Of a stretch of DNA of 64,000 bases, positions 478-47,038 are shown piece after piece (the first letter of the stretch is position 1; every line of letters starts with the position of its first letter). The position numbers and the translations under genes are program-made. The notes under the pieces were generated by a model that saw only the letters and a list, made by a program, of their open reading frames with translations, was not told the origin of the DNA and did no database searches. Where the stretch lies: contig JAEUHE010000236.1 in assembly GCA_016793885.1 (NCBI GenBank), positions 15,876 to 79,875 on the forward strand. Reading direction: 5' to 3'. The stretch is from Verrucomicrobiales bacterium. GTDB taxonomy: Bacteria > Verrucomicrobiota > Verrucomicrobiia > Limisphaerales > UBA11320.

Positions 478-765
478 ACTCAGGTGGGAAGGGGCTGAAG
501 TCCTCCCGAATCAAGCCGATGAAGACCTGGGAGAAGAGGTTCTCCGATGCTTGGATGTACGTTTTTGAGGCGCAACTGTTTTGTCAAGCCGGCCCAGGTC
601 GCGGGTTGTGGGTGACATTTTTCGGACGGCCGCTTGCCCAAAGGCTCAAGATCGTCCACACTCACTTATCCATGTGGCTCCGGCTGTTATCTGTACGTCG
701 TACCCGCTGCTTTTGCGGTGTCGGTTGCCTGTCGGTTTTTCCCTCCCAACTCTCAACTCACTAAC

Positions 766-8811: not shown

Positions 8812-8853
8812 CTCACAACAGCCGTCCCATCGCGCCGGCGGTGGTTGCTGCTA
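8812..8853 (-). repeat. family-B element (half copy) starting at the TAG stop of the DUF1501 gene
   Basis: The reverse complement, TAGCAGCAACCACCGCCGGCGCGATGGGACGGCTGTTGTGAG, matches 18089..18130 at 39 of 42 positions (counted by hand). The leading TAG is the stop codon of CDS 8851..10314. Confidence 0.75.
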
Positions 8854-10314: not shown

Positions 10315-10317
10315 AGG

Positions 10318-28654: not shown

Positions 28655-29935
28655 TTATGATTTTGGGGCCCACTCGTTCAGGGCGCGTTCGGGCAGTGAC
28701 GGTCCTTCAGCGGGCTGGAGCAGCTCGAGCGCTTGGCCGACCAGGTACAGGGAGCCTGCAATCACTGAGAGCTCGGCATCCCGGGTTGACCGCAGCGCTG
28801 CAGCTACCGTGTCCGCCTTTTCGATGCGGAGTTGTGGGGCACGCGATCGACAGAAGGGCTCGAGTTCATCCGGTGTGGCGGTGCGGTTGCTGTCCACCCG
28901 CACCAAAACCAGTCGCTTCATGAGCGGGAGCAGGACCTCGATCATGGTTTCCCAAGCTTTATCCTTGAGCACTCCGAGGACGAAGACAGCCTGTTGACCT
29001 GGGTATTCTGATTCCAGTGTGTCCCGAAGCACTTGGGCTCCATCCGCGTTGTGTGCACCATCTAAAATATGGATGGTTCGGGGGGAGGCGACCCGCTGAA
29101 ACCGGCCCGGCCAGGTCGTCTGTTCGAGCCCTTGCTTTCGGGCCGCCAGCGAGACGGGCAGCTGATGGTTGAGCGTTTCGACGGTGGCCAGTGCGACGGA
29201 AGCGTTCTGCCGCTGGTGCGGGCCTGGCAACGGAAGCTGGACGCCATGGAGCCCCGGTGACTCGGCCGTTTCCGTGGTCAGCAGACGCAGTGGGGCGCTC
29301 TTCAACCGGCAAACCTCCCGCAAAACCAGTTCCACCTCCGGTTGCTGGGGGGCGCTGACACAGGGGATGGCTGGTTTGATGATCCCGGCTTTCTCGGCGG
29401 CGATCTTGGCCACCGTGTCTCCGAGCCATTGCTGGTGATCGAGGCCGATGCGCGTGATCACGCTCGCCAAAGGAGTGACAATGTTCGTGGCGTCCAACCG
29501 ACCTCCGAGGCCGGTTTCCCAGACCACCACATCGCAGCGCTCGTCTGCAAAGTGGAGCAGGGCCATGAGGGTTACCACCTCGAAGAACGTCGGATGATCC
29601 GGCTCGCTCAGTTTCGTCAAGGCTGGCCGTATTCGGTTCAACAGATCCACCACTGCTGCTTCCGGCAGAAGCCGACGGTTGATCTGGATGCGCTCGCCGA
29701 AGTGCACAAGGTGGGGTGAGGTGAAGAGGCCCACCTTGAGTCCACTCGCCCGATACATGCTCTCCAGGAAGGCACAGGTTGAGCCTTTGCCGTTGGTTCC
29801 TGCCACATGGATGAAACGCAGCCGTTCCTGCGGTGAACCCAGTTCGGCCGCGAGTTGGACGGTGCGTTCCAGTCCAAGTCGCATGCTGAACTGGCCCAAC
29901 CCGTGGAGGAATTGGATCGCTTCCTGATAGGTCAT
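28655..29935 (-). CDS. folC: folylpolyglutamate synthase / dihydrofolate synthase (Mur ligase family)
   Basis: The 426-aa ORF has a P-loop (HVAGTNGKGST), then FTSPHL and GLGGRLDATN motifs and a C-terminal Mur-ligase domain. ATG checked at 29933-29935, 43 nt downstream of the megasynthase stop. Confidence 0.8.
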   Translation of the reverse strand: MTYQEAIQFLHGLGQFSMRLGLERTVQLAAELGSPQERLRFIHVAGTNGKGSTCAFLESMYRASGLKVGLFTSPHLVHFGERIQINRRLLPEAAVVDLLNRIRPALTKLSEPDHPTFFEVVTLMALLHFADERCDVVVWETGLGGRLDATNIVTPLASVITRIGLDHQQWLGDTVAKIAAEKAGIIKPAIPCVSAPQQPEVELVLREVCRLKSAPLRLLTTETAESPGLHGVQLPLPGPHQRQNASVALATVETLNHQLPVSLAARKQGLEQTTWPGRFQRVASPRTIHILDGAHNADGAQVLRDTLESEYPGQQAVFVLGVLKDKAWETMIEVLLPLMKRLVLVRVDSNRTATPDELEPFCRSRAPQLRIEKADTVAAALRSTRDAELSVIAGSLYLVGQALELLQPAEGPSLPERALNEWAPKS

Positions 29936-29978: not shown

Positions 29979-32900
29979 TTAGCCGAGCTTGTCGATGCGT
30001 GACTTGAGCTCGGTCGCCAGCAGCTGGACGTAGGGTTCGACCAACATGGCGTGGGGATTCACGGGTAGTTCGACCGGATCGATTCCACCCTTGGCTAGAT
30101 CCCCCCAGCCCATCTTGGGATCTGGGTAGTAGTCGTAATTAACCTTAGGTTTGAAGAGCGTGAGGGTGCCGGCATAGGGCTTCGGCTCGTAGCGATCGCA
30201 GGCAGCGTCGTTGCTCGCCTGGACGGAAGCCTCGCGAAGTTGTGTGGGTTCGTCGGAACCCGGGGATGCCGGCTCGGCCGGCCCTTTGCGACTCAGGAGG
30301 TTCGCCAGTTCCCCGTCCCGCGCGACCCGGGCCTTCTCCTTGATGTATTTGACCATTTCGCCCGGGCTGAGCTTCACGAAGTTTCCGACGTGGAACTTCA
30401 TTTTCTGCAAGAGGTGGCTGGTTGAATTCGTTTTGAGTGCGAGCCCGAAATTGTAGGTGTCGAGCATCGCCAATAGCCTGGTGGTCTCACCGGCCTTCAG
30501 AAGCATCTGGGCCATCTCGTAGGCGATGGTTCCGCCCATGCAATATCCGCCCAGCAAGTAGGGGCCCTTGGGCTGGATTTTCCGAACTTCTTTGAGATAG
30601 AGCGCCGCCATTTCTTCGAGGCTGTTAAGCGGGGGCGTTTTCGCGTCGAGTCCCTGCGACTGCAAGCCGTAGAGCGGGTAGTCCGGCGCTAGGTGTCGGG
30701 CCAGAGCCTGATAGAGCAGGACATTGCCGCCGGCTCCGTGGACTAGGAACAGCGGGCGCTTGTTGCCGCGAGGTTGAATGGGCACCAGCGGCGACCAGTT
30801 CTCGTCCGTTGACTCCTCCACCTCACCGGTCAGCGCTCGAGAGAGTTGTTCGATGGTTGGTGATTTGAACAGCGTGGCGAGCGGCAGTTTCTTGCCGAAT
30901 TCCTTTTCGATCCTCGCGAAGAGGGCGACGGCACGGAGCGACTGTCCGCCCAGGTCGAAGAAATTGCTCCGGATGCTGATTCGCTCCAGCTTGAGGATCT
31001 CGCTCCAGATCTGGGCTAGTTTCTTTTCGGTCGCGTTCCGCGGAGGTACGAAGTCGTCCGCGGTATGGTCCTGGCTCGGTCCGGGATGCGGCAAAGCCCG
31101 GCGGTCGATCTTCCCATTCGGCGTTTGGGGCAGCTTGGGCAGAACCACGAAATGACACGGAACCATGTATTCGGGCAGGCTGGCTCGGAGGAGAGCTTTG
31201 AATTCTGCGCGGGCGCTGGCCTCGTCGAGTGATCCTGGTCCCCCGTTGGGCACGATGTAGGCAACGAGGGCCGGGTGTCCGGGAGACTCATCGGTTAGAA
31301 TCACGGCGGCTTCCTTGAGTTTGGGGGAGGTCAGCAGCACGGTTTCGATTTCACCCAGTTCAATGCGATGTCCCCGAAGCTTGACCTGAAAATCGATGCG
31401 GCCGAGGCATTCAATTTCCCCGTTCGGGAGGAAACGAGCCAGGTCGCCGGTGCGATAGACTCGCGGGCTTGAAGCGGAGCTGAAGGGATTGGGAATGAAC
31501 TTCTCCTCGGTCAGCGCCGAACGGTTGCGATAGCCGCGCGCCAGGCCCAGACCTCCGATCAGCAACTCTCCGGCAACGCCGATGGGGACCGGCTGGAGTT
31601 GGCTGTCCACGATATAGGTCTGGGTATTGGCTATGGGCTTTCCTATGGAGATGGGCTGGTCCTTCTTCAGTTGGACGGCAGTGGACCAGATCGTGGTTTC
31701 CGTTGGACCGTAAACGTTCCAGAGGGATCCGCAGCGGCTCAGGAGTTTTTCTGCCAGATCGGCGGCCATCGGTTCTCCCCCGCAGAGCAACTTAAGCTTA
31801 GGACCGCCCCGCCAATTTGAGGCGGCCAGCATGCGCCAGGTTGTGGGTGTCGCCTGCGCCAGGGTGATTCCGGTGCGGCTGATCAGGTCACTGAGGATGG
31901 CCGGATCGAGGGCGGCAGTCCGCGGAGCGATCACGATCTTGGCCCCGCTGATTAACGGCAAGAACACCTCCAGGCCCGCGATATCGAAAGAGAGCGTGGT
32001 CAAGGCCAAGACCACATCTTCTGGAGTGATCCCCGGCTGCCGCCGCATGGAGATCAGGAAGTTGGCGAAGGCGCGATGGGTTATTTCTGCGGCCTTCGGG
32101 GTTCCTGTGCTTCCTGAGGTGTAAATGGCATAGGCAAGGTCATCTGGATGAATCGGGCGCGAAACGGGACCCTGGCTTTCCGCTAGCAGCGCATCGCGTT
32201 GGCCATCCATGGATATGACTCGGATCTTGGTGGAGCCCAGTCGAGCCTGGAGGGATTGTTGCGAGAGGACGATCTTGGCCCCGGAGTCGCTGAGCATCGA
32301 CGTGATGCGCGCGGTGGGCACCTCGGGATCGATCGGCACATAGGCGGCTCCTGCTTTGAGGATGCCAAGCAACCCGATCACCATATCCAAGGAGCGCTCG
32401 AGGCAAACCGCCACCACCGAGTTGGGAGCGGCCCCTACTTTCGCCAAGTGGTGAGCCACCTGATTCGACCGTGCATCCAGTTCGGCGTACGAGAGCCGCT
32501 GGCCCTCGAACTCCACCGCAACCCGCTTGGGCGTCTGTCGTGCTTGCACGGTGCAGAGTTCAACCACGCTCGCCTGCTCCGGCAATTCCAGCGTGGTTTG
32601 GTTCCATTCGACCAGGATCTGGTGCCGCTCGGCCTGATTCAACAGGGAGAGCTGGCCAATCGGAGTCGCCGGGTCTGCGACGATCGATTCCAAAAGAGTT
32701 TGGAAATGTCCGACCCAGCGGCGGATCGATTCCGCATCGAACATGTTGCGGTTGTAATCGCACTCCACCAGGAGGTGATCGCCCTCGTCGACCAGGTTAA
32801 AGCCGAGGTCGTATTGGAAGAAGAAGCGGGGCCCCGCCGTGATCTTCTGACTGAGTCCGGAGAACCTGACCTTGTTGAGCGGCGGGTCCAGGTTAAAGAG

Positions 32901-35900
32901 CACGGAAGCCAGTGGGATACGGCTGGGATCGCGCGGGATGTCCAGTTTTTGAGCGATGGATCCGAATGTGGTGTTCCAGTTTTCCTGGGTGTCGAGGACC
33001 AACCCCAGAGCGTTCTTCAGAAGTGTGTTGAAAGGTTCCGCTGGGTTTACCGCAGCCCGAAGCGGCAGCGTGTGCACGCATTGCCCCACCAGCGTTTCGC
33101 TGCCCATGGCGCTCTGGCCTGCATACGGCACACCAATCACGATGTCGTTCAGCCCGCTTAGGCGATGCAGCCAAACCTGATAAGCGCCCAGCAGCAGCGC
33201 GAAGGGGGTGTTGCGTTGCGACTGCGCAGTTTTCTTGATGGACTGGAAGAGACTGGCAGGCAGGCGCAAGCTGTGGCGCTCGCCTTCATAAGTGCGGTTC
33301 TTGGGGCGCGGGCGGTAAGAGGGCAGATCCAGCGGCGCGGGGACATCGGGAAATCTGGCCAGCCAGAAGGCCTCCGACTGAACGGCGATCTCCTGTTGTT
33401 CGGGGCGGCCGAGCCACTCCGCATAGTTGCGCATGGGGACGATCGGACGCAGGGAGGGGACACGATCCTCCACATAGGCCGAATACAGCTCACTGATCTC
33501 CTCTAGCACGACGTTGTAGCCCCATCCGTCGCAGACAATCATGTTCAGGCTGAACACCAGCATGTGCTCGGATTGGGACAACTTGATGATATGGAAGGTG
33601 ACCAACGGCCCTTCATTCAGATCATAGAGCCGCTGTCCCTCCTGTTGGAGAATCTGGGCCGTTTCCGATTCTCGTTCGACTTGAGGCAGGTCGCTGAAAT
33701 CATGGACCGGCACATCGATCGTGATCGACGGGTGGATCAGGATGCACATGCCGTCGGCACTGAAGGTGGATCGAAGCGCCTCATGGCGGTCGATGATCTG
33801 GTGGATGGCGCGGCGCAGGCACTCGATGTTGAGCGGCCCGCGCAACTGCACGACATTGCTGGCATTGAACGCGCCGGAGGCCTCCGGCTGAATCTGCGTC
33901 GAGAGCCACATCTCCTTCTGGGAATCGGTCAGGGAGCAGCTTCTGGTTCCGGGTGGCAGGCCGGGAATTTCCTGGGTGTCCGGGCGCGTGCGGGCAGAGA
34001 CCGTGGTCGGGGTGGCACCCGAGGGCGGAGGAGTGGGTGCTCCCGGGGGAAGCGTTGCCTGCGTGCTCGCGATCTGCGCGAATTCAGCATCGCTGGTGCC
34101 GGGCAGGAAGCCGCCCAATTGCATCTCGGCGACCGCCTCCTTAAACGCCCGCGAAACGTAACTCAGATCCGCCTCGGTGTGTGCCAGTGTGAAATAGCAG
34201 GGCCTCCCTTCCCAGACATGAACCCCCTTCAAGCGCATGAAGTACCAGAGCAGGCTGATGAACTCGAGGTCATGCGCGTGTTCGATGTTCGCGAATGCGC
34301 AGAAGTGCGGGAAACGGATGGGTACCTGGTTACGTTCGAAGTATTGGTTCAACTCCGTGCAGAATTTGGTCACTCGGTCCGTGATGCCTAACTGAAGCTG
34401 CGGGCCTTCTTGCTGGAGTTTCTTCAGGATGGTCCAAGCGGCACGGATCGCCAAGGGATGTCGGACGAACGTTCCTGCAAAGAACGTGACGCCCACTTCG
34501 GGGAAGGAATCATCACCGTAGTTCCAGGCGCCGCCATCGAGCGCGTCCATATATTGACGCTTGCCGGCCAGGACTCCGATTGGGATGCCTCCCCCAATGA
34601 CTTTGCCGTAGGTCGCCATATCCGCTTCCACACCAAAATACGCCTGCGCGCCGCCCGGGTGGCAGCGGAAACCGGTGACCACTTCGTCGAAGATGAGCGC
34701 GGCTTCGGCGTCGCGCGTGATCTGGCGCAGCGCCTTCATGAACTCCTTCGGCTGGAGCCCCGGGGAGCGGCTCTGAACAGGCTCGACCAAGACGGCGGCG
34801 ATCTCGTGGATGTGGGCTTTGATGACCTCGAGCGACTCAGGGACGCCGTACTCGAGGATCAGCATGTTCTCGACGAGGCTGGACGGGATTCCCGGGGCGA
34901 TGGCCTGGGCTCGGTATTCCCCGTTGACCCAGGCGCCGCGAACGAGCACCTCCTCGAACATCCCGTGGTAATCGCCCGTGAAGTAAACCACCCGTTTGCG
35001 ACCGGTGATGGTGCGCGCGAGCCGGATCGCGGCCATGACCGCTTCGGAGCCAGTGTTGCAGAAGGTGGCGCGGTCCATCCCGGTGAACTCGCAGATCATT
35101 TTCGCCACCTCACCGGCCAGGGCTGACTGTGGCCCGATTTCTATGCCGGTATCCAGCTGGTCGTGCAGCGGCTGGATGAGCCAGTCGGGCGAATGCCCGA
35201 AGAAGTAAGTGCCGAACCCCATCGTGATGTCGACATACTCGTTCCCATCGAGATCCCAGATTCGGGAGCCCTTGGAGCGCGTGGACACAATGGGGTAGAC
35301 CATCTCCTTCCAATTGCGCTTGAACCCGGCGACAGCCCGGGGGTCGGCGAAGTGCGGCCGGTGCTCGGCGGTGTACTTCTTGGAGCCGCCAGTTTTCGCC
35401 TGGTATCGGGCGAGTAGCTGATTGAGCGCTCCCTCCTGAACGGCGGTTAGACCACCTTTCTGTCCCTTCTCGATGGGCTTGTAGGGGCCGAAGCGTTTAA
35501 ATTCCTGCTGGGCCGTCGCCACGGCGTGGGCGGGAGGTTTCGCTCCCGGCCAGCGAATGGTTGGTAATGAGCTGGCTGGACTTCCGGACGTGCTCGTCCC
35601 TGCGGGGATGGCGGCCGGTGTGGGCGCAACCTGGCCCTTCTGCTGGGCCAGTAGCAGCTGCATGAGCTGGATCTGTTGAGCCATCAACTGCTCCATCATG
35701 TTGCCGCCGGCAGGCGCCGCAGCAATCGGAGTCGCGTTGAGCGGCGAGGAATTCATGCTCAGTGCTGTCGGCGGTGGCGTGGCCGCCGGGGCTGCTGAGG
35801 CACTGGCGGCCGGCGTGACCGGAGCGGGAGCGGGAAGCGCGTCGGCGGGCAGCTTGTTGTCAATGTAGCTGGCCAGGGCGTCGACGCTCGAGAGATCCCC

Positions 35901-38900
35901 CAGCATCTGTCGGAAAGTGAGCTTGAGGTTGAATTTTTGCTGAAACGCCTGGCTGGCTTGCGTCAGGAACAAGGAGTCGAAGCCCAGTTCCATGAAGGAG
36001 GCGCTATCGTTTGTGACATCGACTCCCGAGAGCTCTTTCACGATCGCGCGCAGTTGCACTGCAATTCGATTGCGGCGCGGCTCGGCGGGGGGAAGGGCGG
36101 GCACAGACATAACAACAGGGGGAGGAGACACGCTGGCGGGCGGAATCGCGATCGTTGGCGACGTCGCTGGCATCGGCGACGCCAGGGGGAGGGGGGCTGG
36201 CATCGCTGGGACGGAGACTGGGATGGAAACCGGGGCTGGGCCCGCTGAGGCTGCCGGGTTTACCGGTGCGACCCAGAACCGCTGACGTTCGAATGGGTAG
36301 GTGGGCAGGGCGACCCGTCGGCGGGACTCTTCGCGACTAAAGTCACTCCACCCGACACGAACCCCGCTCGCCCAGAGTCGGCCGAGCGCACTCAGCATCG
36401 AGTTGAGATCTCGGCCAGGGGCATCGGTCGGACCCAAACTGCCTGCGATGACGAGCCCAGAGGGCTTCGCCGGATGCTGCCGAGCCAGCTGGCTCAAGGT
36501 TTGTCCGGGACCGATCTCCAGAATAATGTTCTTCTCATCCCTGATCACCGTTTCCAGGGCCTCTACAAATCGAACTGATTGGCGAAGTTGTTTTGCCCAG
36601 TAGGTGCCATCCTGCAGGTCGCTTGGTGACAATGCCCGGCCGGTGCAGGTGGAGATCCAAGGCAATTGAGGAGCTTGATGGGGAGTCTTCGCTGCCAGTG
36701 CGGTGAACTCGGCCAGCATGGGATCCATCATGGACGAGTGGAAGGCATGCGAGGTGGGGAGGAAGCGAGAGGCGATCTTCTTCGCTTCGAGCGTTTTCTG
36801 GAATTCCTCGAGCGTGGGAGTTGGACCCGCCACGGTGCACAGCTTGGGACTGTTAAACGCCGCGATCGAGGCGTCACGAGGAAGGAGGGGTGCCGTTTCT
36901 TCGCCGCTTAGCCGAACCGCCAGCATGGATCCTGCGGGTAGGCTCTGCATGAGCTTGGCTCGCGAGGCAAGGAGGTCCAAAGCGGCTTCCAGAGTGAAGG
37001 TCTCAGCCAGAACGGCGGCGACGTACTCGCCGATGCTATGTCCGATGAGTAGGCTGGGCTTAATTCCCCACGAGAGCCAGAGCTGGGCAAGGGCATATTC
37101 CACCACAAAGATGGAAGGCTGGGTGATCCAGGTTTTATTGATCTCTGTCTCCGCCGCCGGGCGCTGGTCTGGCGAAGGATAGAGGACGCGCCTAATATCC
37201 AGTCCCAGGCGGTTCTGGAGAATGCTGGCGCATTGATCGATCGCTGCGCGAAAGGCGCTTTCGGTTTCGTAGAGTTCCCGCCCCATGTCGACGTATTGAG
37301 CCCCCTGTCCGGGAAACAGAAATACAACCGAGGGTTCGGCTGAGGATGCTTTCGATTGGTGATCCGTCTTGGCATCGGGTTGGCGGAGATGAGCTGATGC
37401 CTCCTGGTGGTTGGAGACCACGACGGATCTGCGGTAGGTAAAGCCTTTGCGGCCCTGCTGCAACGTGAAAGCGACATCGGGCAAGGGCACGGAGGGGGAG
37501 GCGTCCAGGAACGCCGCCAGCCTCTCAGACATGGCGCGAAGGGCTGTTTCGGTCTTGGCCGAAAGAACGAGCAGCTGTTGCCGGCGTGATGGGCCGCCGG
37601 GTGTTCGGAGGGGGGCTTCCTCTACGATCACATGGGCATTGGTGCCGCCGACACCGAAAGCGCTTACGCCGGCTCTTCGCGGCTGGGCCCCCCGCTTCCA
37701 TTCCAGCGGACGGGTGACTGGATAGAATGGGCTGTTGGCAAAGTCGATTTTTGGATTGGGTGCCTTGAAATGGAGCAGCGGCGGGATCAATTCGTGCTGC
37801 AGCTGCAGCACTGTCTTGATCAGCCCGGTGGCGCCTGCAGCCACGTCCAGATGTCCGATGTGAGTCTTTCCGGTGCCGATCGCGCAGAATCCCACTTTGG
37901 TGGATCCGCCCTCACGAAAGGCTTTGGTCAAAGCGGTGATCTCGATCGGATCGCCGAGGGGCGTTCCGGTTCCGTGGGCCTCGATGTAGGAAATCGATTC
38001 CGGATCCACGCCGGCGGCGGCCTGAGCCAACGCGATGACATCGGCCTGGGCGTTGATGCTGGGCGCGGCATATCCGATCTTGGCTGAACCATCATTGTTG
38101 ATGGCGGTTCCTTTGATGACCGCGAGCACCTGGTCTCCATCGGCCACCGCATCGGCGAGCCGTTTGAGCAGAACGACCGCCACTCCATGACCGAAAACGG
38201 TTCCGTGCGCGGAAGCGTCGAAGGTTCGGCAAGTGCCATCGCCGGAAACCATGCCTTCCTCCTGATAGAGGTAGTTGCGCTTTTGCGGGAAGCTGATCGA
38301 GGATCCACCGGCCAGCGCCATGTCGCACTGGTAGGTCAGCAAGCTGGTGCAAGCTTGGCTGATCGCCACCAAGGAGGTTGAGCACGCGGTTTGGATCGAC
38401 ATGCTTGGTCCGCGCAGGTTCAGCTTGTAGGACACCCGAGTGGGAAGGAAATCCTTGTCGTTCCCGAGCATCACCTGATAGGCACCCACCTGATAGTTGC
38501 CCGAGAAGTTGGCGGCGAACTCCCGGTCTCGGCACAGGTTGCTGAGCAAGTAGGTATTCAGGCTCAACCCACCGTACACGCCGATCATTCCGGGGTACGA
38601 CTCCGGATCGTAGCCAGCTCCCTCGATGGCTTCCCAGGAGCATTCGAGGAACAGGCGGTGCTGCGGATCCATGATCTCAGCCTCCTTGGGATAGATCCCG
38701 AAGAAAGCCGCGTCAAATTGGTCGACCCCTTCGAGTATGCCCCGGGCGGCGACAAATTTCTGGCCCTGCGCCTTGGCCTCCGGGCTCGCCACCGAAAATT
38801 CTAGTTCCTCCTCCGAGAACACGGAGATGGTCTCACGGCCCGCCATCAGATTGTCCCAGAACTCTTGGACTGACCGCGCCCCGGGGAAGCGGCCGGACAT

Positions 38901-38957
38901 GCCCACAATGGCGATGCCTTCGAGTTGGCTTGGATCGATTGAAGTATTACTGGACAT
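29979..38957 (-). CDS. hybrid PKS-NRPS megasynthase: KS-AT-ACP-aminotransferase(class III)-C-A-PCP-TE
   Basis: 2992 aa; residue numbers below come from hand counting. KS aa ~13-440 (TACSTSL with Cys192, EAHGTGT, GHLDVAAG). AT ~545-860 (GHSIGE, HAFH). ACP ~965-1035 (LGFDSL). Aminotransferase ~1195-1615 (NTGSEAVMAAIRLAR, DEVVTGFR, YGKVIGGG). C ~1675-2100 (RHEALRSTF; C3 reads NMIVCDG). A ~2130-2620 (YTSGSTGTPKA, NVYGPTETT, YRTGDLARF, PNGKIDRRAL). PCP ~2645-2710 (FFDLGGQSL). TE ~2730-2992 (LVHGAGGN, GGYCMGG). Confidence 0.9.
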   Translation of the reverse strand: MSSNTSIDPSQLEGIAIVGMSGRFPGARSVQEFWDNLMAGRETISVFSEEELEFSVASPEAKAQGQKFVAARGILEGVDQFDAAFFGIYPKEAEIMDPQHRLFLECSWEAIEGAGYDPESYPGMIGVYGGLSLNTYLLSNLCRDREFAANFSGNYQVGAYQVMLGNDKDFLPTRVSYKLNLRGPSMSIQTACSTSLVAISQACTSLLTYQCDMALAGGSSISFPQKRNYLYQEEGMVSGDGTCRTFDASAHGTVFGHGVAVVLLKRLADAVADGDQVLAVIKGTAINNDGSAKIGYAAPSINAQADVIALAQAAAGVDPESISYIEAHGTGTPLGDPIEITALTKAFREGGSTKVGFCAIGTGKTHIGHLDVAAGATGLIKTVLQLQHELIPPLLHFKAPNPKIDFANSPFYPVTRPLEWKRGAQPRRAGVSAFGVGGTNAHVIVEEAPLRTPGGPSRRQQLLVLSAKTETALRAMSERLAAFLDASPSVPLPDVAFTLQQGRKGFTYRRSVVVSNHQEASAHLRQPDAKTDHQSKASSAEPSVVFLFPGQGAQYVDMGRELYETESAFRAAIDQCASILQNRLGLDIRRVLYPSPDQRPAAETEINKTWITQPSIFVVEYALAQLWLSWGIKPSLLIGHSIGEYVAAVLAETFTLEAALDLLASRAKLMQSLPAGSMLAVRLSGEETAPLLPRDASIAAFNSPKLCTVAGPTPTLEEFQKTLEAKKIASRFLPTSHAFHSSMMDPMLAEFTALAAKTPHQAPQLPWISTCTGRALSPSDLQDGTYWAKQLRQSVRFVEALETVIRDEKNIILEIGPGQTLSQLARQHPAKPSGLVIAGSLGPTDAPGRDLNSMLSALGRLWASGVRVGWSDFSREESRRRVALPTYPFERQRFWVAPVNPAASAGPAPVSIPVSVPAMPAPLPLASPMPATSPTIAIPPASVSPPPVVMSVPALPPAEPRRNRIAVQLRAIVKELSGVDVTNDSASFMELGFDSLFLTQASQAFQQKFNLKLTFRQMLGDLSSVDALASYIDNKLPADALPAPAPVTPAASASAAPAATPPPTALSMNSSPLNATPIAAAPAGGNMMEQLMAQQIQLMQLLLAQQKGQVAPTPAAIPAGTSTSGSPASSLPTIRWPGAKPPAHAVATAQQEFKRFGPYKPIEKGQKGGLTAVQEGALNQLLARYQAKTGGSKKYTAEHRPHFADPRAVAGFKRNWKEMVYPIVSTRSKGSRIWDLDGNEYVDITMGFGTYFFGHSPDWLIQPLHDQLDTGIEIGPQSALAGEVAKMICEFTGMDRATFCNTGSEAVMAAIRLARTITGRKRVVYFTGDYHGMFEEVLVRGAWVNGEYRAQAIAPGIPSSLVENMLILEYGVPESLEVIKAHIHEIAAVLVEPVQSRSPGLQPKEFMKALRQITRDAEAALIFDEVVTGFRCHPGGAQAYFGVEADMATYGKVIGGGIPIGVLAGKRQYMDALDGGAWNYGDDSFPEVGVTFFAGTFVRHPLAIRAAWTILKKLQQEGPQLQLGITDRVTKFCTELNQYFERNQVPIRFPHFCAFANIEHAHDLEFISLLWYFMRLKGVHVWEGRPCYFTLAHTEADLSYVSRAFKEAVAEMQLGGFLPGTSDAEFAQIASTQATLPPGAPTPPPSGATPTTVSARTRPDTQEIPGLPPGTRSCSLTDSQKEMWLSTQIQPEASGAFNASNVVQLRGPLNIECLRRAIHQIIDRHEALRSTFSADGMCILIHPSITIDVPVHDFSDLPQVERESETAQILQQEGQRLYDLNEGPLVTFHIIKLSQSEHMLVFSLNMIVCDGWGYNVVLEEISELYSAYVEDRVPSLRPIVPMRNYAEWLGRPEQQEIAVQSEAFWLARFPDVPAPLDLPSYRPRPKNRTYEGERHSLRLPASLFQSIKKTAQSQRNTPFALLLGAYQVWLHRLSGLNDIVIGVPYAGQSAMGSETLVGQCVHTLPLRAAVNPAEPFNTLLKNALGLVLDTQENWNTTFGSIAQKLDIPRDPSRIPLASVLFNLDPPLNKVRFSGLSQKITAGPRFFFQYDLGFNLVDEGDHLLVECDYNRNMFDAESIRRWVGHFQTLLESIVADPATPIGQLSLLNQAERHQILVEWNQTTLELPEQASVVELCTVQARQTPKRVAVEFEGQRLSYAELDARSNQVAHHLAKVGAAPNSVVAVCLERSLDMVIGLLGILKAGAAYVPIDPEVPTARITSMLSDSGAKIVLSQQSLQARLGSTKIRVISMDGQRDALLAESQGPVSRPIHPDDLAYAIYTSGSTGTPKAAEITHRAFANFLISMRRQPGITPEDVVLALTTLSFDIAGLEVFLPLISGAKIVIAPRTAALDPAILSDLISRTGITLAQATPTTWRMLAASNWRGGPKLKLLCGGEPMAADLAEKLLSRCGSLWNVYGPTETTIWSTAVQLKKDQPISIGKPIANTQTYIVDSQLQPVPIGVAGELLIGGLGLARGYRNRSALTEEKFIPNPFSSASSPRVYRTGDLARFLPNGEIECLGRIDFQVKLRGHRIELGEIETVLLTSPKLKEAAVILTDESPGHPALVAYIVPNGGPGSLDEASARAEFKALLRASLPEYMVPCHFVVLPKLPQTPNGKIDRRALPHPGPSQDHTADDFVPPRNATEKKLAQIWSEILKLERISIRSNFFDLGGQSLRAVALFARIEKEFGKKLPLATLFKSPTIEQLSRALTGEVEESTDENWSPLVPIQPRGNKRPLFLVHGAGGNVLLYQALARHLAPDYPLYGLQSQGLDAKTPPLNSLEEMAALYLKEVRKIQPKGPYLLGGYCMGGTIAYEMAQMLLKAGETTRLLAMLDTYNFGLALKTNSTSHLLQKMKFHVGNFVKLSPGEMVKYIKEKARVARDGELANLLSRKGPAEPASPGSDEPTQLREASVQASNDAACDRYEPKPYAGTLTLFKPKVNYDYYPDPKMGWGDLAKGGIDPVELPVNPHAMLVEPYVQLLATELKSRIDKLG

Positions 38958-38966
38958 GCAATTCCT

Positions 38967-40892
38967 TTAGCGTCGCCCGCGTTTGTTAGCCGCCGCGAGC
39001 GCTTCGCGTTGACGACGAGCCCTATCTTGGAGCGTGGCATTTCCGGCCGCCGCTGCGTGGGGAAGACCTAGAAACTCTGCTTGAGTGCGGACCGTGGTAG
39101 CGGCGAAAAGCTGCGTCAATGGGAACTCGCGTCCGACCAGGGCCTGCAGGCGCGTATGGAGTTGCGCCAACCGGATCGAATCCCCATCGACGTCGAAAAA
39201 GCTGATGTCGTGCCTGACATCGGATCGCGACAGAATCTCCCTCCACAGCGCTGCGATCTGGCCCTCCAGGTTCCCTCCGTTGGGGACAGGGGCCGAAGGT
39301 GAAGCGTCCGGTGCGGCGCGCTCGGCCAAAGCCCGGCGATCCACCTTCCCGTTCGGGGAGAGGGGAAACGAGTCCAGCACGCTCAGGGTCGACGGGACCA
39401 TATAATCCGGTAGCCTGTCCCGTAGAAACTGTTTCAGGCTGGCCGAGTCGGCCGACGCGCCATCCTTGAGTGTCACGTAGGCGGCGAGGGACTGCGCGCC
39501 TTCGTTCTCTTGGCGCCGGCAGGCGACCACCACGGGTTCGCGCACGGAAGGATGAAGCTGGAGCGCGTTTTCGATTTCACGCAACTCGACGCGGTAGCCT
39601 CGAACCTTGACCTGATGGTCCAGGCGTCCCAGGAACTCGATCACCCCGTCGGGGAGCCAGCGCGCCTGATCCCCCGAGCGATAGATAAGACTTCCTTCGA
39701 TCTCGGGCAGGGGGTTGGCGATGAAGCGCTGCTGGGTGAGGGTGGTATCATTGACGTAGCCAGCGCCTATCCCGGTTCCGCCGATGCAGAGTTCCCCCGG
39801 CGTTCCAATGGGACAGGGCCGAAGCTCGGGATCCAAAATTGCGATCTGGGCATTGTAGATGGGGCGGCCCAGTGGAACAAAGTCGTAACGGTCCAGGTTG
39901 TCACGAGTAAGCCGGTAGAAGCCGCAGATGTCGGTGCACTCCGTGGGGCCGTAGGTGTTCGCGACTTCGGCTCGTGACTTGGGATGAGTGATCCAGGTGC
40001 GCAACCGGGGTATCGAGATCGGTTCCCCGCCCAGACATACCACGCGCAAGGAACTGAGTCGGTTGGCCGTTTCTTCGGTGAACGGCTCGATCAATGGGTA
40101 GAACGCGCTGGGCGTGCAGTTGATGTAGGTGATCCCGTGTCGGGCGATCAGGCGTCCAAGCAGGGAGATATCATAAGGGCCCGGTGGATAGAGATGCAGG
40201 GTGCCACCCCGGATCAGCGGCGCATAGAGATTCTTTTGAGTCAGGTCGAAGCTAAGGGAACTGACCAGCAGCACGTGGTCCCGACTGTCGAAGTTGAACT
40301 CGGAGACGAACCAATGGATGAGGTTCGTAAATCCACGATGATAGACAGCTGCCCCTTTGGGAGCTCCGGTGGAACCGGACGTGAAGATCACGTAGATGAG
40401 ATCATCTGGAGTGGAGCCGGGCGTGGGGTTGTCGCTGCACTCCGAAGCAAATGCCGCGTCGCTCTCGTTCAGAGTCATTAACTCCAGATCAGGTCGGGAG
40501 GAAAACCTTCCCGCCAAGGCAGGGGAAGTCAGCAGCAGACGCAGCCTTGAACCTGAGATCATCGCGTCCAGCCGTTCGGCGGGGTAGGTGGGATCCAACG
40601 GAACGTAGGCACCGCCCGCTTTCAGAATCGCGTAGATGCCGACCAGCACCTCAATCGACCGCTCGAGTGAAACTCCGACCAGAGAATTGGCCTGAACGCC
40701 TTTCCGACGGAGGGCATGGGCCAGTTGGTTCGCCCGTCGGTTGAGCTCGCTGTAGGTGAGCGTCTTACCCTCAAACTCGACCGCCACCGCCTGGGGTGTT
40801 CGAGCGACCTGCTCCTCGAAAAGCTGGTGTACGCAGGCATGCCGGGGCCAATCAACCCGGGTGGCGTTGCTCTGAATACGTGGGTCGCTCAT
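38967..40892 (-). CDS. stand-alone NRPS loading module: adenylation domain + peptidyl carrier protein (A-T)
   Basis: The 641-aa ORF has the A-domain core motifs LTYSELNRRANQLA, LKAGGAYVPLDP, FTSGSTGAPKG, NTYGPTECT, GELCIGGTGIGAGY, YRSGDQARW and SPNGKVDRRAL. The carrier motif is FFDVDGDSIRLAQL. Its stop lies 9 nt before the KS gene ATG, which is preceded by AAGGA. Confidence 0.9.
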   Translation of the reverse strand: MSDPRIQSNATRVDWPRHACVHQLFEEQVARTPQAVAVEFEGKTLTYSELNRRANQLAHALRRKGVQANSLVGVSLERSIEVLVGIYAILKAGGAYVPLDPTYPAERLDAMISGSRLRLLLTSPALAGRFSSRPDLELMTLNESDAAFASECSDNPTPGSTPDDLIYVIFTSGSTGAPKGAAVYHRGFTNLIHWFVSEFNFDSRDHVLLVSSLSFDLTQKNLYAPLIRGGTLHLYPPGPYDISLLGRLIARHGITYINCTPSAFYPLIEPFTEETANRLSSLRVVCLGGEPISIPRLRTWITHPKSRAEVANTYGPTECTDICGFYRLTRDNLDRYDFVPLGRPIYNAQIAILDPELRPCPIGTPGELCIGGTGIGAGYVNDTTLTQQRFIANPLPEIEGSLIYRSGDQARWLPDGVIEFLGRLDHQVKVRGYRVELREIENALQLHPSVREPVVVACRRQENEGAQSLAAYVTLKDGASADSASLKQFLRDRLPDYMVPSTLSVLDSFPLSPNGKVDRRALAERAAPDASPSAPVPNGGNLEGQIAALWREILSRSDVRHDISFFDVDGDSIRLAQLHTRLQALVGREFPLTQLFAATTVRTQAEFLGLPHAAAAGNATLQDRARRQREALAAANKRGRR

Positions 40893-42725: not shown

Positions 42726-44129
42726 TCAACTCAGCAGCGACGGCACGATGTGCGCGCTGGTGACGTCGAAGTCGGTCAGGCTGGCCGCCCGGCCTTCATG
42801 CGGAAAGCTGAGGGCCTTGTGATCCACCCCGAGGGTGTGGAGCAGGGTGGCGTGGAAATCGGGCACGCTGACGACATCCTCGACGGAACGGTAACCGAAC
42901 TCGTCCGTGGCTCCGTGCACATGTCCGCCCTTGAATCCTCCGCCCGCCACCCACAGCGAGAAGGCATGCCGATTGTGATCCCGGCCGTCCTTGCCCTGCG
43001 ACACCGGCAAGCGGCCGAACTCGCCGGTCCAGAGCACCACCGTGGAATCCAGCAGCCCCCGAGCCTTGAGGTCCTTCACGAGGGCTGCGCTGGGCTGATC
43101 GGTTTTGGCGCACAGCCCCTTCAATCGCTCGGCATTCTTATCGTGCGTGTCCCAGGGTTGGCCATTGAGGAACAGTTGCACAAAGCGCACCCCGCGCTCG
43201 ATCAGCCGACGAGCCAGCAGACAGCGCCGTCCATATTCCTCGGTGACCGGATTGTCTAATCCGTAGAGCTTCTTGGTGGCGTCCGATTCACTCGACAGAT
43301 CCAGCGCCTCCGGAACCGCGCTCTGCATGCGGGCGGCCGTTTCGAAGTTGGCGATGCGGGCGTTGAGTTCGGTGTTCTCCGGGTAATGGGACGCGTGCTG
43401 CTGGTTGAGGGCCTTCAACAGGTTGAGCTGATTCAGGCGTGCCTGTGGCGGAGTCTTGGAGGGCGTCTGCAGGTTAAACACCGGGGAGTTTCCACTGCGG
43501 AACGGCGTTCCTTGATAGATGGCCGGCAAGAATCCCGATGACCAATTCCGCTCGCCGTCGACCGGCAACCCGCCGGGATCCGACAACACCACGTAGGCCG
43601 GTAGGTTCTCATTCTCCGAGCCCAACCCGTAGAGCACCCAAGCGCCCAGAGTCGGCAGCCCGGCCAAAAACCGTCCGGTGTGAATGATTCGCAGCGCGGA
43701 TTCGTGGTCCACGGACCCCGTTGTCATGGATCGAACCAGGGTTATGTCGTCCGCGATCGATCCCGTGTGCGGCAGCAACTCCGATAGGTGCATTCCACAC
43801 TGCCCGTGGCGATGAAACTCATAGGGGGCTCCCAGGACATTCCCGGCCTGCTTGTCGAAATGAATCTCCAGGTTGCCGCCGGGGTAGGGCTTTCCGCTCC
43901 ATTTGTTCAGCGCGGGTTTGTAGTCGAACAAATCCATCTGGCTCGGTCCGCCGTGCTGGAAGAGACTGATGATGGCCTTGGCCTTCGGTTGGTAGTGTCC
44001 CGGCTTGGCGGGATTGGAAGCGCCGGCTCGCGATCCCGCCAGGAGTTGTGACAAGGCAATGGCACCCAGCCCGCCGGCGGATCGACCGAGGAAGGCGCGT
44101 CGTGAAAGTGCAGACTCGATGGCATTCAT
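42726..44129 (-). CDS. DUF1501 domain protein, Tat-type signal
   Basis: Track ORF 42726..44171. I prefer ATG 44129-44127, which gives MNAIESALSRRAFLGRSAGGLGAIALSQLLAG and overlaps the upstream TGA (44128-44126) as ATGA (checked). The DUF1501 blocks match 8851..10314: HGGPSQMDLFDYKP, TGEFGRLP, GRDHNRH. Confidence 0.9.
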   Translation of the reverse strand: MNAIESALSRRAFLGRSAGGLGAIALSQLLAGSRAGASNPAKPGHYQPKAKAIISLFQHGGPSQMDLFDYKPALNKWSGKPYPGGNLEIHFDKQAGNVLGAPYEFHRHGQCGMHLSELLPHTGSIADDITLVRSMTTGSVDHESALRIIHTGRFLAGLPTLGAWVLYGLGSENENLPAYVVLSDPGGLPVDGERNWSSGFLPAIYQGTPFRSGNSPVFNLQTPSKTPPQARLNQLNLLKALNQQHASHYPENTELNARIANFETAARMQSAVPEALDLSSESDATKKLYGLDNPVTEEYGRRCLLARRLIERGVRFVQLFLNGQPWDTHDKNAERLKGLCAKTDQPSAALVKDLKARGLLDSTVVLWTGEFGRLPVSQGKDGRDHNRHAFSLWVAGGGFKGGHVHGATDEFGYRSVEDVVSVPDFHATLLHTLGVDHKALSFPHEGRAASLTDFDVTSAHIVPSLLS

Positions 44130-47038
44130 TCGAGGTAAAGAAACGAGTTCAGGCTGAGCAGCGATTGGCACAGATCCGCCCAGGTTCGCTGTTCAGCATC
44201 GGGGCGATCGGAATAAACGCGTCGCTGCTCGGTGATGAATTGCGTCGCGTGCGCCAGCTCGGTGGCGTCGGGTTCGCGTCCGGCGCTGAGCAGAAAAGCC
44301 TGTCGGATCCGCTGGCGAGCATCACTGTCAGTGCCCGCTTCGCGCAGTAAGCGCTCAGCGAAATCCTCTGCTCGCTTCACCGAGAACTCGGAGTTGAGCA
44401 AGCTCAACGACTGCAGTGGCATGGTCGTGCTGGCTCGACGGGTGCAATTGAAAACCACCGAGGGGGCATCGAAGTTTCCGAGGAAGGTCGGCACCTGGGT
44501 CCGCCGATGCTGGAGGAATACCGAGCGCGAGAACGCTTCCGGTTTCGACTCATCCACCAGCACCTCACCGGATCCTTCCCGTGGGGTGGGGACGTAGGGT
44601 CCTCCGGCTTTGGGGCCCAATCTGCCCGCGACAGCGAGCGTGGCATCGCGAATGGACTCGGCGTCCAGGCGATGGATGGGATATCGCCACAGCAGCTGAT
44701 TGGCAGGATCGGCGGCGATGCCCTGATCATGGGGGCGGCTGGATTGCTGGAAGGTGGCAGAGTGCAGGATGAGCCGCACCACAGCTTTGGTGCTCCATCC
44801 CGATTCGATGAACTGTCGCGCCAGCCAATCCAGGAGCTCGGGGTGCGAGGGCTTGGCACCGCTGACTCCCAAGTTCTCCGGCGTGGCCACCAGCCCGATT
44901 TCGAAGCAGTGTTGCCAGATCCGATTGACCGTCACGCGAGCGAGTAGCGCCGCCTGAACCGAGTCGGGCTCGGTAAGCCACTGTGCCCACGCGGTGCGAC
45001 GTCCGGTCGTGGTCGCTGTTTTGTGGAATGCCCCCGCGCCGCGTGGAGCCTTTGCCGCCAGCATGGAGAAGAAGACGGGTTCCACCGGCTCGCCCGGGGT
45101 TTTATGGTTGCCGCGCTCGAGCAAGCGCACTTGGGGAGCCTCCGGACCGCTGTCGGTCATCCACGCGATCATCCCGGGCTTGGGAGTTCGCTGTGCCGCG
45201 ATCGCCTTGGTCGCTGTCTCCAGAGTCTTTTTGCGTTCCTTGAGCAGCTTCGCAAACGCCGCGTTTGTCGCGGCCCAACCTGGCAGCGATTCGTTGGATC
45301 GTTCGATGGCCACATTGTCGACGATGAAGCTGCGTCCGCAGCAATATTCAAAGGCGAACCCTCCGCGAGGCAGATCCTCGGCGGACAGCTTCAAGCTCTC
45401 GCCATCGACCGCGCCATCATAGAGATGCTCCAACAAGAACTCATTGGTGCTCTTGCGAGTGATGCGGATGCCGTAGTTGTGTCCGGGTTTGTATCCGGAG
45501 GCTCCGAGGTTGCCCTTGCTCTTGGCATCGCTCCCCGGGTAGTCCGTGTGCACTGCGGTTGCTCCGCCTGGGTTTCCATCGATCAGAATATTCCCGCCGT
45601 TCACCTCCGAATTGTCGTTGAAGTCGTGAGCGGCAATGACATAGCCGATTCGCTCCGCCCCGCCGCCCTGGCTGTCCAGAGCCAGTGAGGTGGACACGAG
45701 ATCGAAGCTGGCTTGGATCCATTGACCATCAGCGGCGGGCCGCCAATCGAAGGCAGCCTTCGTGCTGAGCCAGCGGTCTCCGGAACCGCCGCCTTCGCGA
45801 ATCCAGAGCCTGCCGTCCCGAACTTCGGCTCCCGGGCTGTCGGAAGAGTCCAGCTGCACAGCCGGCGAACCGCTTGGGATGTCGTCGCCCGGCGCTGTAT
45901 TCGACCATCGCTCGCGCAGGGGGCGGCCCGGGTCGAACGAGTCCTGGAAGACCAGTTCACCGCGCGGTCGATGCGCCGCCGACCAGGCGCTGAATTCGGC
46001 TTGGAGTAACTCCTTCTGTTGATCGAGACGTTTTTCTTCGGCCTGCCAGGCCTCTGCTTGGCCGGGGAGGGCGGCCTGCACCACTCGGTCATTGGGCTTG
46101 GTCCATTTTTCGATGTGGAAGGCGGGATACAGGAATGCCTGGAACGAATAGTAGTCCTTTTGGCTGATCGGCTCAAACTTATGGTCGTGGCACTTGGCGC
46201 ATTGCAGTGTGACGCCCAGCAGGCTGGAGCCCATGATCTGCATCGCGGACTCCAGCGCGTAATAGCGGTCGGTCCGAACCTCATCCGGATTACCGTCGCT
46301 CTCGCCCGAGCCATCCTGGCCATTGCGGAGGTAATGGGTCGCCTCCAGTAGCCGAACGATCTCGGCGGTGGCGGGGTGGCCGGGTTTCCAGCCGGATAAC
46401 TCGTCGCCGGCGATTTGCTCGCGGACGAACTGGTCGAAGGGAAGATCTTGGTTGAAGGACCGAATCACGTAGTCCCGATACCGATAGGCATACGGCCGGT
46501 CGGTATCGGCATTGAAATAGCCGTTGGAGTCCGCGTAACCGGCCACATCCAGCCAGTGTTTCCCCCACCTTTCCCCGTAGCGCGGGGACGCGAGATATCG
46601 TTCCACCATCCGTTCGAAAGCCCCGGGCAGACGGTCTGCGACAAAGGTGTCGATCTCGGCGGGCGAGGGCGGCAGCCCAGTGAGAATAAAGGCCACCCGC
46701 CGGATGAGCGTGTGAGCGTTGGCGCTTGGGTTCAGCGCGAGCGACGCGCCCTGCAATTTCTGGCTGACGAATCGGTCGATGGGGGAAGATGCGCCCACCG
46801 TAAGGGGGGATGGTGTCGATGAGGGGGGCGGTTGAGGACGCAGAGGTTGGAACGCCCAATGGGAAACCGCGGCCGCGCTGCGGTCGACCTGGGCCGAAAC
46901 AGCGATCCGAGGACCGAGAGCGGAGCAGAGCAACACCAGGCCGAGGAAGGTTGCTGAAAGGCATAGGTGCGCCCTGCGAGTTTGGCGCTCGCCAGACTGT
47001 GGCCTCCCGGCCGGGGGTGTGAGTCGGTCACGGTTCAT
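44126..47038 (-). CDS. DUF1549(PSCyt2)-ConA-like insert-DUF1553(PSD1) protein, without the cytochrome c motif
   Basis: The 970-aa ORF has a DUF1549 block (LPPSPAEIDTFVAD ... SPRYGERWGKHWLDVAGYADSNGY). A CAKCHDHKFEPISQKDYY motif is present. A ConA/DUF1080-like insert lies at ~aa 370-600. A DUF1553 block follows (VNRIWQHCFEIGLV ... HPELLDWLARQF). Confidence 0.9.
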   Translation of the reverse strand: MNRDRLTPPAGRPQSGERQTRRAHLCLSATFLGLVLLCSALGPRIAVSAQVDRSAAAVSHWAFQPLRPQPPPSSTPSPLTVGASSPIDRFVSQKLQGASLALNPSANAHTLIRRVAFILTGLPPSPAEIDTFVADRLPGAFERMVERYLASPRYGERWGKHWLDVAGYADSNGYFNADTDRPYAYRYRDYVIRSFNQDLPFDQFVREQIAGDELSGWKPGHPATAEIVRLLEATHYLRNGQDGSGESDGNPDEVRTDRYYALESAMQIMGSSLLGVTLQCAKCHDHKFEPISQKDYYSFQAFLYPAFHIEKWTKPNDRVVQAALPGQAEAWQAEEKRLDQQKELLQAEFSAWSAAHRPRGELVFQDSFDPGRPLRERWSNTAPGDDIPSGSPAVQLDSSDSPGAEVRDGRLWIREGGGSGDRWLSTKAAFDWRPAADGQWIQASFDLVSTSLALDSQGGGAERIGYVIAAHDFNDNSEVNGGNILIDGNPGGATAVHTDYPGSDAKSKGNLGASGYKPGHNYGIRITRKSTNEFLLEHLYDGAVDGESLKLSAEDLPRGGFAFEYCCGRSFIVDNVAIERSNESLPGWAATNAAFAKLLKERKKTLETATKAIAAQRTPKPGMIAWMTDSGPEAPQVRLLERGNHKTPGEPVEPVFFSMLAAKAPRGAGAFHKTATTTGRRTAWAQWLTEPDSVQAALLARVTVNRIWQHCFEIGLVATPENLGVSGAKPSHPELLDWLARQFIESGWSTKAVVRLILHSATFQQSSRPHDQGIAADPANQLLWRYPIHRLDAESIRDATLAVAGRLGPKAGGPYVPTPREGSGEVLVDESKPEAFSRSVFLQHRRTQVPTFLGNFDAPSVVFNCTRRASTTMPLQSLSLLNSEFSVKRAEDFAERLLREAGTDSDARQRIRQAFLLSAGREPDATELAHATQFITEQRRVYSDRPDAEQRTWADLCQSLLSLNSFLYLE

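Follow-up and report, generated by a model that had tools for sequence, protein, structure and literature searches.

A condensation domain with methionine in place of the second active-site histidine in a small polyketide–nonribosomal peptide assembly line of a Verrucomicrobiales bacterium

We analyzed a stretch of 64,000 nucleotides from a Verrucomicrobiales bacterium (contig JAEUHE010000236.1, positions 15,876 to 79,875), which is referred to here as the window and in which all coordinates are counted from its first letter. Its minus strand encodes a small assembly line combining polyketide synthase (PKS) and nonribosomal peptide synthetase (NRPS) parts, and the condensation (C) domain of this line, hereafter C*, reads NMIVCDG where the active-site motif HHxxxDG is expected. 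The megasynthase is encoded by an uninterrupted open reading frame (ORF) of 2992 aa (29979..38957, minus strand). Its Pfam matches are ordered as ketosynthase (KS, residues 13-397), acyltransferase (AT, 545-828), acyl carrier protein (ACP), aminotransferase (AMT, 1221-1562), C (1674-2115), adenylation (A, 2137-2616), thiolation (T, 2646-2709) and thioesterase (TE, 2734 to about 2990). The order ACP-AMT-C-A-T-TE puts C* after a carrier and ahead of an A-T pair, which is the position of a canonical C domain. A second gene codes for a loading A-T protein. The features of the assembly line are as follows, in the direction of biosynthesis:

38967..40892, minus strand: loading A-T protein of 641 aa (Pfam and amino-acid adenylation model)
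36474..38921, minus strand: KS (TACSTS) and AT (GHSIGE, HAFH) domains (Pfam and motifs)
35970..35987, minus strand: phosphopantetheine site LGFDSL of the ACP, the donor carrier for C* (motif)
34272..35297, minus strand: class-III aminotransferase (AMT) with an intact pyridoxal phosphate (PLP)-lysine motif, TYGKVIGGG (Pfam and motif)
32613..33938, minus strand: condensation domain C*, residues 1674-2115 (Pfam PF00668, AF2 model and Foldseek)
31110..32549, minus strand: adenylation domain with motifs A2-A8 and A10 intact and the Gly-type code DILQLGVIWK (Pfam and alignment)
30831..31022, minus strand: terminal T domain (Pfam and motif)
29988..30758, minus strand: thioesterase (Pfam and motif)

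The HAFH motif of the AT is presumably of malonyl type. Besides this motif and GHSIGE, the window retains the KS Cys, the Ser of both ACP and T, the AMT Lys and the A-domain motifs. Specificity codes, here and below, were obtained by alignment to a segment of GrsA; the control recovered the GrsA code DAWTIAAICK, and single code positions may be out of register where an A domain is divergent or dead.

The codons at 33545-33525 on the minus strand are AAC ATG ATT GTC TGC GAC GGA and translate to N-M-I-V-C-D-G, residues 1805-1811, in frame, of the intact ORF, exactly as the initial annotation of this DNA had read them. The Asp and Gly of HHxxxDG are kept and both His are absent, so that the canonical HH pair is lacking. 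That annotation had also placed the motif at the true C3 position, about 75 aa past C2, between the aminotransferase and the Gly module. Both points hold: the C2 motif RHEALRSTF (residues 1724-1732) is normal and ends 73 aa upstream of C3, and the domain lies between an AMT with intact TYGKVIGGG and an A domain with the code DILQLGVIWK. When C* is aligned by phmmer to C domains of solved structure, NM falls exactly on the HH of Txo2 ('LLLTMHHIVSDGWS' versus 'MLVFSLNMIVCDGWG'), and it pairs with the HH of Txo1, too. An intact HH elsewhere in the domain, which had been named as a possible counter-finding, was looked for in C* and none was found. A relocated catalytic His was likewise sought across the clade of related domains described below, with no candidate found. 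The only His conserved in this clade are H1725 (in C2) and H1798, which canonical C domains conserve as well; the catalytic His has therefore not moved. In one respect the earlier reading was too strong, as it called the second His the generally accepted catalytic residue, the role of which is debated (PMC11546977). The motifs of C* are located as follows:

33906..33920, minus strand: C1 motif QKEMW, with E1682 at the inferred position of the gating Arg and the clade-specific M1683 (alignments and PMC8097023)
33762..33788, minus strand: C2 motif RHEALRSTF, normal (motif reading)
33525..33545, minus strand: C3 motif position, N1805-M1806-I-V-C-D1810-G1811 replacing HHxxxDG (codons and alignment to solved C domains)
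33057..33089, minus strand: C5 region VGQCVHTLPLR, with a GQC variant common to the HH sister group (alignment)
32796..32813, minus strand: YDLGFN strand with the clade-defining G2052, which is Phe in the sister group (alignment)

The replacement is shared by a large group of related domains. With the C domain as query, a word-indexed protein search returned 194 matches, the four nearest of which with full coverage (45-49% identity) read QMI[IV]CDGW, while the following tier (36-41% identity) reads HHIVCDGWS. In addition, 78 loci came from scanning species-representative genomes and metagenome contigs, and with four further fetched loci 80 were examined. We assigned 68/80 loci (identity of at least 42%) to what we call the xM clade; these counts include a few duplicate contigs (L002 = L024; L023 = L066), and all relatives are metagenome-assembled genome (MAG) or metagenome sequences, some of them from frameshifted long-read assemblies. 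The clade consensus is [Q/H/N]-M-I-x-C-D-G-W. Whether orthologous clusters conserve NM, as the initial annotation had asked, has a divided answer: the Met is found in 68/68 loci, and the first position varies in the order Q > H > N (QM in 60, HM in 7 and NM in 1). As a background, an exhaustive search of representatives contained 633 HHxxxDG motifs versus no xMxxxDGW in 149 giant NRPS matches. This search was dominated by giant multi-C NRPSs through their summed scores and yielded one useful ortholog, P0222 (3004 aa, 83% identical), which comes from a separate assembly, also carries NM and reads SLNMIVCDGWGY. NM is found in the independent assembly L003 as well. The occurrence of xM at C3 is far from chance. 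That the codons might be assembly errors, or that the motif belongs to a decaying pseudogene, is effectively refuted by these data: the ORF is intact over its 2992 aa, the same residues recur in the independent assemblies P0222 and L003, Met is kept throughout the clade, and all other catalytic motifs inspected in the window are intact.

The MAGs of the clade are labelled as Verrucomicrobiota/Opitutae, Pirellula/Planctomycetota, Acidobacteriota/Terriglobia, Ignavibacteria/Bacteroidetes and 'Deltaproteobacteria', with metagenome contigs in addition; within the species-representative genome set every match was a MAG and none an isolate. The nearest relatives of C* are in Verrucomicrobiota MAGs. 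In tblastn comparisons of the window domains with the loci, the order A-T-KS-AT-ACP-AMT-C*-A-T-TE is kept nearly everywhere. A simple neighbour-joining tree placed the xM clade as one monophyletic branch inside HH-type AMT-following C domains, and its closest sister group carries HH. Altogether, C* apparently represents a distinct, selectively maintained and functional subfamily of PKS-to-NRPS condensation domains. A full-text literature search gave no description of a C domain with xMxxxDG, and a literature search on AMT-linked condensation domains and HHxxxDG gave nothing on an xM family.

Apart from its C3 motif, C* is a well-formed member of the C superfamily. The match to PF00668 is near end to end (5-456/456) and scores 263 bits against a cutoff of 30.6. 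The AF2 model (predicted local distance difference test, pLDDT, 95.1; predicted template modelling score, pTM, 0.92) has the canonical two-lobed C fold resembling chloramphenicol acetyltransferase (CAT), and among the Foldseek matches listed, solved C domains, including those of DhbF and LgrA, have query-based template modelling scores (TMq) of 0.72-0.85, the top match being Txo2 (6p1j, TMq 0.85). Among the core motifs, C2 (RHExLRT) and C7 (RDxSRNPL) are present, C1 (SxAQxR(LM)W) has Glu for Arg and C5 reads GQCVHT; the C1 and C5 variants also occur in HH-type relatives. The fuscachelin C3 domain uses the C1 Arg (R2577) to bar unloaded pantetheine from the acceptor channel, and the same position is Gly (G21) in AB3403 and Ala in ObiF1 (PMC8097023). 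The equivalence of E1682 with R2577 was inferred by motif spacing through the Txo2 alignment. As Glu at this position is common to the sister group, it predates the loss of the His.

Among 53 non-redundant sequences of the clade, 45/446 columns are invariant. In comparison with the HH sister group (L029, L072-L077), the clade is set apart by only seven substitutions, namely M1683, M1806, E1819, W1848, W1929, G2052 and D2067, and three of the seven fall by motif position into the C1 helix (M1683), the C3 loop (M1806) and the YDLGFN strand (G2052), regions which presumably line the substrate tunnels. We read this pattern as an active site that has been remodelled rather than decayed and that is under strong purifying selection.

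By fold and profile C* belongs to the C superfamily, and by motif, context and best matches it is none of the X, heterocyclization (Cy) or epimerization (E) domains. The X domain of glycopeptide NRPSs (HRxxxDD; Foldseek match 4tx3) resembles it as a C fold with a disabled His motif ahead of a TE. However, X domains recruit a P450 after a complete final module, whereas C* sits where a condensation is required, its motif is NMIVCDG and the cluster holds no P450 (Oxy) genes. Cy domains form amides on a C fold without the HH pair (PMC11546977), as is proposed here for C*, yet C* has no DxxxxD and no Cys, Ser or Thr acceptor, the first residue of C3 in the clade is N, Q or H and not D, and the similarity is weak (5t3e, E = 5e-12). 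An E domain would be expected to have HH and to follow the T domain of its own module; C* has no HH, lies after an AMT and before an A domain, and finds its best structural and sequence matches in C domains and not in E domains.

Its closest relatives by sequence are ordinary AMT-following C domains; domains of this kind include those of MycA/ItuA (iturin family) and McyE (microcystin). The HH relatives recovered here (P0004-P0020, L029, L072-L078) occupy the same ACP-AMT-C-A-T position, have the same fold and share C1 with E at the Arg position, C2, the C5 'GQC' and C7. Like the window clade, the HH sister group is followed by A(Gly)-T-TE with a Cys nucleophile in the TE. The HH relatives keep HH together with a T-domain motif GGHS, whereas the window clade has xM, GGQS and the seven defining substitutions. 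Furthermore, the sister locus L029 starts with an N-terminal starter C domain, whereas the window clade is without a working one. A natural, active C domain lacking the second His is ORF18 of streptothricin biosynthesis, which handles donors containing beta-amino acids (PMC11546977). It is likened to C* by description and not by sequence: its motif is HQ...DM versus xM...DG, and as a T-C protein it acylates the free amine of an aminosugar, whereas C* belongs to an in-line AMT-C-A-T-TE module.

The downstream part of the line points to further changes linked to C3. The following two motifs are concerned:

30936-30953, minus strand: core motif LGGQSL of the terminal T domain, residues 2669-2674 (motif)
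30531-30548, minus strand: TE nucleophile motif GYCMGG, with Cys and not Ser, residues 2804-2809 (motif and alignment)

LGGQSL is found in 51/55 clade loci, and the HH sister group has GGHS. The GGHS-to-GGQS change in T coincides with the His-to-Met change in C, which suggests a co-adapted C-T pair. Wherever a clade locus has a TE (56 loci), the nucleophile is Cys (GYC[LM]GG), and in the alignment GYCMGG falls on the nucleophiles of AB3403 (GWCFGG) and of Ser-type TEs. The Cys-TE also occurs in the HH sister group and hence predates the His-to-Met change. Candidate triad partners, assigned by position, are the Asp in AMLDTY and the His in VNPHAML. Solved NRPS TEs with Cys are limited to SulM, ObiF1 and AB3403, of which SulM and ObiF1 are the only ones of known function and make strained lactam or lactone rings (PMC11298585). 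The Gln-Cys-Asn motif of these two (PMC11298585) is replaced by Y-C-M in the window TE, and the triad Asp, which is relocated to position II in that type (PMC11298585), appears from sequence to be at the usual position I (AMLDTY). The best solved relative of the window TE is the AB3403 Cys-TE (E = 2.9e-25). AB3403 of Acinetobacter baumannii (C-A(Gly)-T-TE, PDB 4zxh/4zxi) shares the rare TE Cys and has no gating Arg (G21), and the A(Gly)-T-TE(Cys) half of the window line resembles it, including an A domain that binds Gly in AB3403. In contrast, its C domain is distant from C* (E = 3.4e-20), and it takes an acyl-ACP donor in trans, without a PKS or AMT part. T and TE are the best-conserved parts of the assembly line. 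The initial annotation had dealt with the C3 motif without these co-varying features, that is, the Cys-TE, the GGQS of the T domain and the optional A domain described below.

The data establish the motif and how it is conserved, the fold, the domain order and the intactness of the adjacent domains, whereas the catalytic competence of C*, its chemistry and the product are inferred. We give about even chances to the reading that C* of the window is a working condensation domain without a His base, which would pass the chain from the ACP to Gly-S-T for subsequent release by the Cys-TE. In this sequence of steps, the loading A-T protein would supply an amino-acid starter, KS-AT-ACP would carry out one malonyl extension, and the AMT would convert the beta-keto group into a beta-amine. 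The ACP would then carry a beta-amino chain, which would probably be 3,4-diaminoacyl if the starter amine is free; since a starter C domain is absent, this amine may indeed stay free. The A domain would load Gly onto T, and C* would hold the two substrates on their pantetheine arms so that the chain passes from the ACP to the Gly amine, with no His base and possibly with the help of one of the donor's own amines, after which the Cys-TE would free the product.

His-independent condensation is favoured because of the strong purifying selection, the remodelled and undecayed active site and the Gly A domain maintained in the window. In about 15 loci an intact and conserved Gly-code A domain is found at an identity like that of C*, which argues that Gly is used there. 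The strong conservation of T and TE implies that the chain must reach T-TE, and C* is the sole candidate amide-forming domain placed between the chain and Gly-T. There is also precedent, as streptothricin ORF18 (HQxxxDM) is active without the second His, His mutants of some C domains keep activity, and Cy domains form amides with DxxxxD (PMC11546977).

The adenylation domain next to C* was found in three states among the loci. It is intact, with the Gly code DIL[QA]LG[LMV][VI]WK, in about 15 loci including the window. In about 14 loci it persists as an alignable relic of about 490 aa with A3, A4, A5, A8 and A10 destroyed (L009, L010, L013, L014, L016, L017, L019, L020, L022, L051, L052, L065, L067), and the lesions differ among the Pirellula, 'delta' and Ignavibacteria lineages. 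In about 27 loci it is cleanly deleted, with a C-to-T gap of 82-109 nt (L006, L007, L011, L012, and among L040-L064). The A-less MAGs are labelled Acidobacteriota/Terriglobia, and the remaining loci of this kind, which share the GWGF[KR] motif variant of these MAGs, come from metagenome contigs without a label. An active Gly A domain is still found in L037, L039 and L041, which share this variant, and the deletion is therefore derived. A(Gly) was lost or killed independently at least 2-3 times, with C*, T and TE staying conserved. Among the dead-A genomes, C* and T each have a mean pairwise identity of 58%, as against only 34% for the A relic; in the Gly-type genomes C* and A are both at about 50%.

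Several of these observations weigh against His-independent condensation onto Gly. About 41 related loci have a dead or deleted cis A domain and an equally conserved C*, and such survival is not expected of a domain that solely condenses cis-loaded Gly. The only C* residue separating Gly-type from A-less and dead-A loci is the poorly conserved column 1852, and no extra A domain was found in the flanks of four dead-A or A-less loci (about 4-9 kb downstream, 3 kb upstream). In addition, the H2697Q mutant of the fuscachelin C3 domain, which has a Gly acceptor, is left with about 1% activity (PMC8097023), showing that loss of the His can cripple a C domain.

Since relatives have lost the A domain repeatedly, acceptor-independent and scaffold roles retain some probability. 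One possible, although unlikely, explanation is that C* takes the chain off the ACP thioester and passes it to any group at the end of the T arm, even a bare pantetheine thiol (transthioesterification), with Gly as an option and with release of a diamino acid or its Gly amide by the Cys-TE. The independent losses of A(Gly) speak for it, as T keeps its Ser (LGGQSL) and C* and TE are conserved through them, and so do the likeness of C* in Gly-type and A-less loci and the absence of a trans A domain in the flanks of the four loci. The Arg that bars unloaded pantetheine appears to be Glu (E1682), by the equivalence described above (PMC8097023), and the GGHS-to-GGQS change in T accompanies that from His to Met. 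However, E1682 is common to the HH sister group and not specific to the clade, and the Gly A domain is intact in the window. We know of no C domain that exchanges thioesters from carrier to carrier. Moreover, T could be loaded in trans by the loading A or by an unlinked A domain, as happens in known A-less modules. In its full form, which we propose only tentatively and hold to be unlikely, C* would be a His-less 'C0' fold acting as an acceptor-independent ACP-to-T translocase. It would feed a Cys-TE that releases a vicinal-diamino acid, perhaps by lactamisation, with Gly as an ancestral option that was repeatedly discarded.

The same losses bear on the idea that C* is a non-catalytic scaffold or docking domain, similar to an X domain, that holds AMT, ACP and T-TE or recruits a partner while the chain reaches the TE otherwise. 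We consider this rather improbable. It would account for the loss of the catalytic His and for the persistence of C* without a cis acceptor substrate, and the dead A domains kept as spacers of about 490 aa indicate that structural retention occurs in this family. However, it leaves the maintained Gly A and T domains of the window and its Gly-type relatives (about 15 loci) unexplained, and the clade-defining changes cluster in presumed tunnel and active-site motifs, with no relaxed drift there. A candidate for such a partner is a conserved 359-aa protein encoded after the TE in 12 loci, but it is absent from the window, and the two-gene cluster beside folC contains no P450 or similar gene.

A further possibility, to which we attach little weight, is that C* performs other amine chemistry, either with reversed polarity, such that the beta- or gamma-amine of the ACP chain attacks Gly-S-T, or by intramolecular lactamisation. 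The clade is without the starter C domain of the sister locus L029, so its chain should bear free amines, a His positioned for the acceptor alpha-amine would be unneeded, and the Cys-TEs of SulM and ObiF1 form strained lactam or lactone rings (PMC11298585). On the other hand, an ACP upstream and a T-TE downstream correspond to normal polarity, and lactamisation at C* would free the chain ahead of T-TE, yet T and TE are best conserved. Furthermore, the Cys-TE is older than the His-to-Met change, as the sister group combines HH with a Cys-TE, and the window TE is nearest to AB3403 and not to SulM or ObiF1. The initial annotation had left non-canonical condensation, unusual chemistry on the beta-amine and a purely structural role side by side; this range is now narrowed, with His-independent condensation favoured.

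The role of the second His of HHxxxDG has long been argued, since its mutation kills some C domains and spares others. The xM family represents a natural experiment on this question, in which His changed to Met once and the Met was kept across at least six phyla, with the Gly acceptor module retained in some lineages and dropped in others. If the ACP-to-T translocase reading were true, this would be a new catalytic role for the C fold, in a widespread family of minimal PKS-NRPS lines so far seen in uncultured organisms only. The combination of a variant C domain, a rare Cys-TE and an amino-acid-derived beta-amine makes a new, small diamino compound the probable product. With its two genes, the system is small and can be reconstituted.

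The loading A-T protein satisfies the model for amino-acid adenylation and carries both D235 and K517; an assignment as a fatty acyl-AMP ligase, as in iturin-type lipopeptides, was rejected on these grounds. Its specificity code is DLKNCGTDIK, with an unusual pairing of K239 and D330; codes of this type recur in relatives from Limisphaerales, Opitutae and Pirellula. Across the relatives, the loading A domains have codes of the DLKNCGTDIK type, the Thr code DFWNIGMVHK or the Pro code DVQYIAHV[TV]K. The Thr-code loading A was never seen alongside an active Gly A domain in loci with both readable. In L010 (2069-3349), an extra N-terminal C-like domain has PPIIADE at the motif position in an alignment of 22% identity and may be a second degenerate C domain.

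The cluster is flanked by folC and a 3-keto-disaccharide hydrolase gene. A Mur-ligase-like gene (28655-29935, minus strand) begins 44 nt past the megasynthase stop and was considered as a candidate for product tailoring; this was rejected, as it scores as FolC above the curated cutoff (387 bits versus 163) and is not conserved in the related loci. With folC right after the TE and with housekeeping genes of Planctomycetota-Verrucomicrobiota-Chlamydiota (PVC) type and PSCyt/DUF1501 genes in the flanks, the cluster comprises two genes. Two PSCyt/PSD1 (DUF1549/DUF1553) plus DUF1501 gene pairs, of a kind typical of Planctomycetota and Verrucomicrobiota genomes, lie on either side of it (8851-13557 and 42726-47038, both minus strand). 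The approximately 359-aa protein mentioned above, which is absent from the window neighbourhood, is rich in Cys, contains two internal repeats and matches no Pfam family, and its gene directly follows the TE gene in the 12 related loci (L022:14107-15183, plus strand; homologs in L005-L008, L011-L014, L016, L017 and L019). Related clusters (flanks of L002, L033, L006 and L020) are often accompanied by glycosyltransferases, Wzz/GNVR, UDP-glucose dehydrogenase, TylF-like methyltransferases, a phosphopantetheinyl transferase (PPTase) and RND/HlyD export genes, which hints at a link to cell-surface or exported glycoconjugates; none of these genes adjoins the window cluster. Finally, the left end of the window is occupied by an ORF of 2610 aa (634-8466, plus strand).

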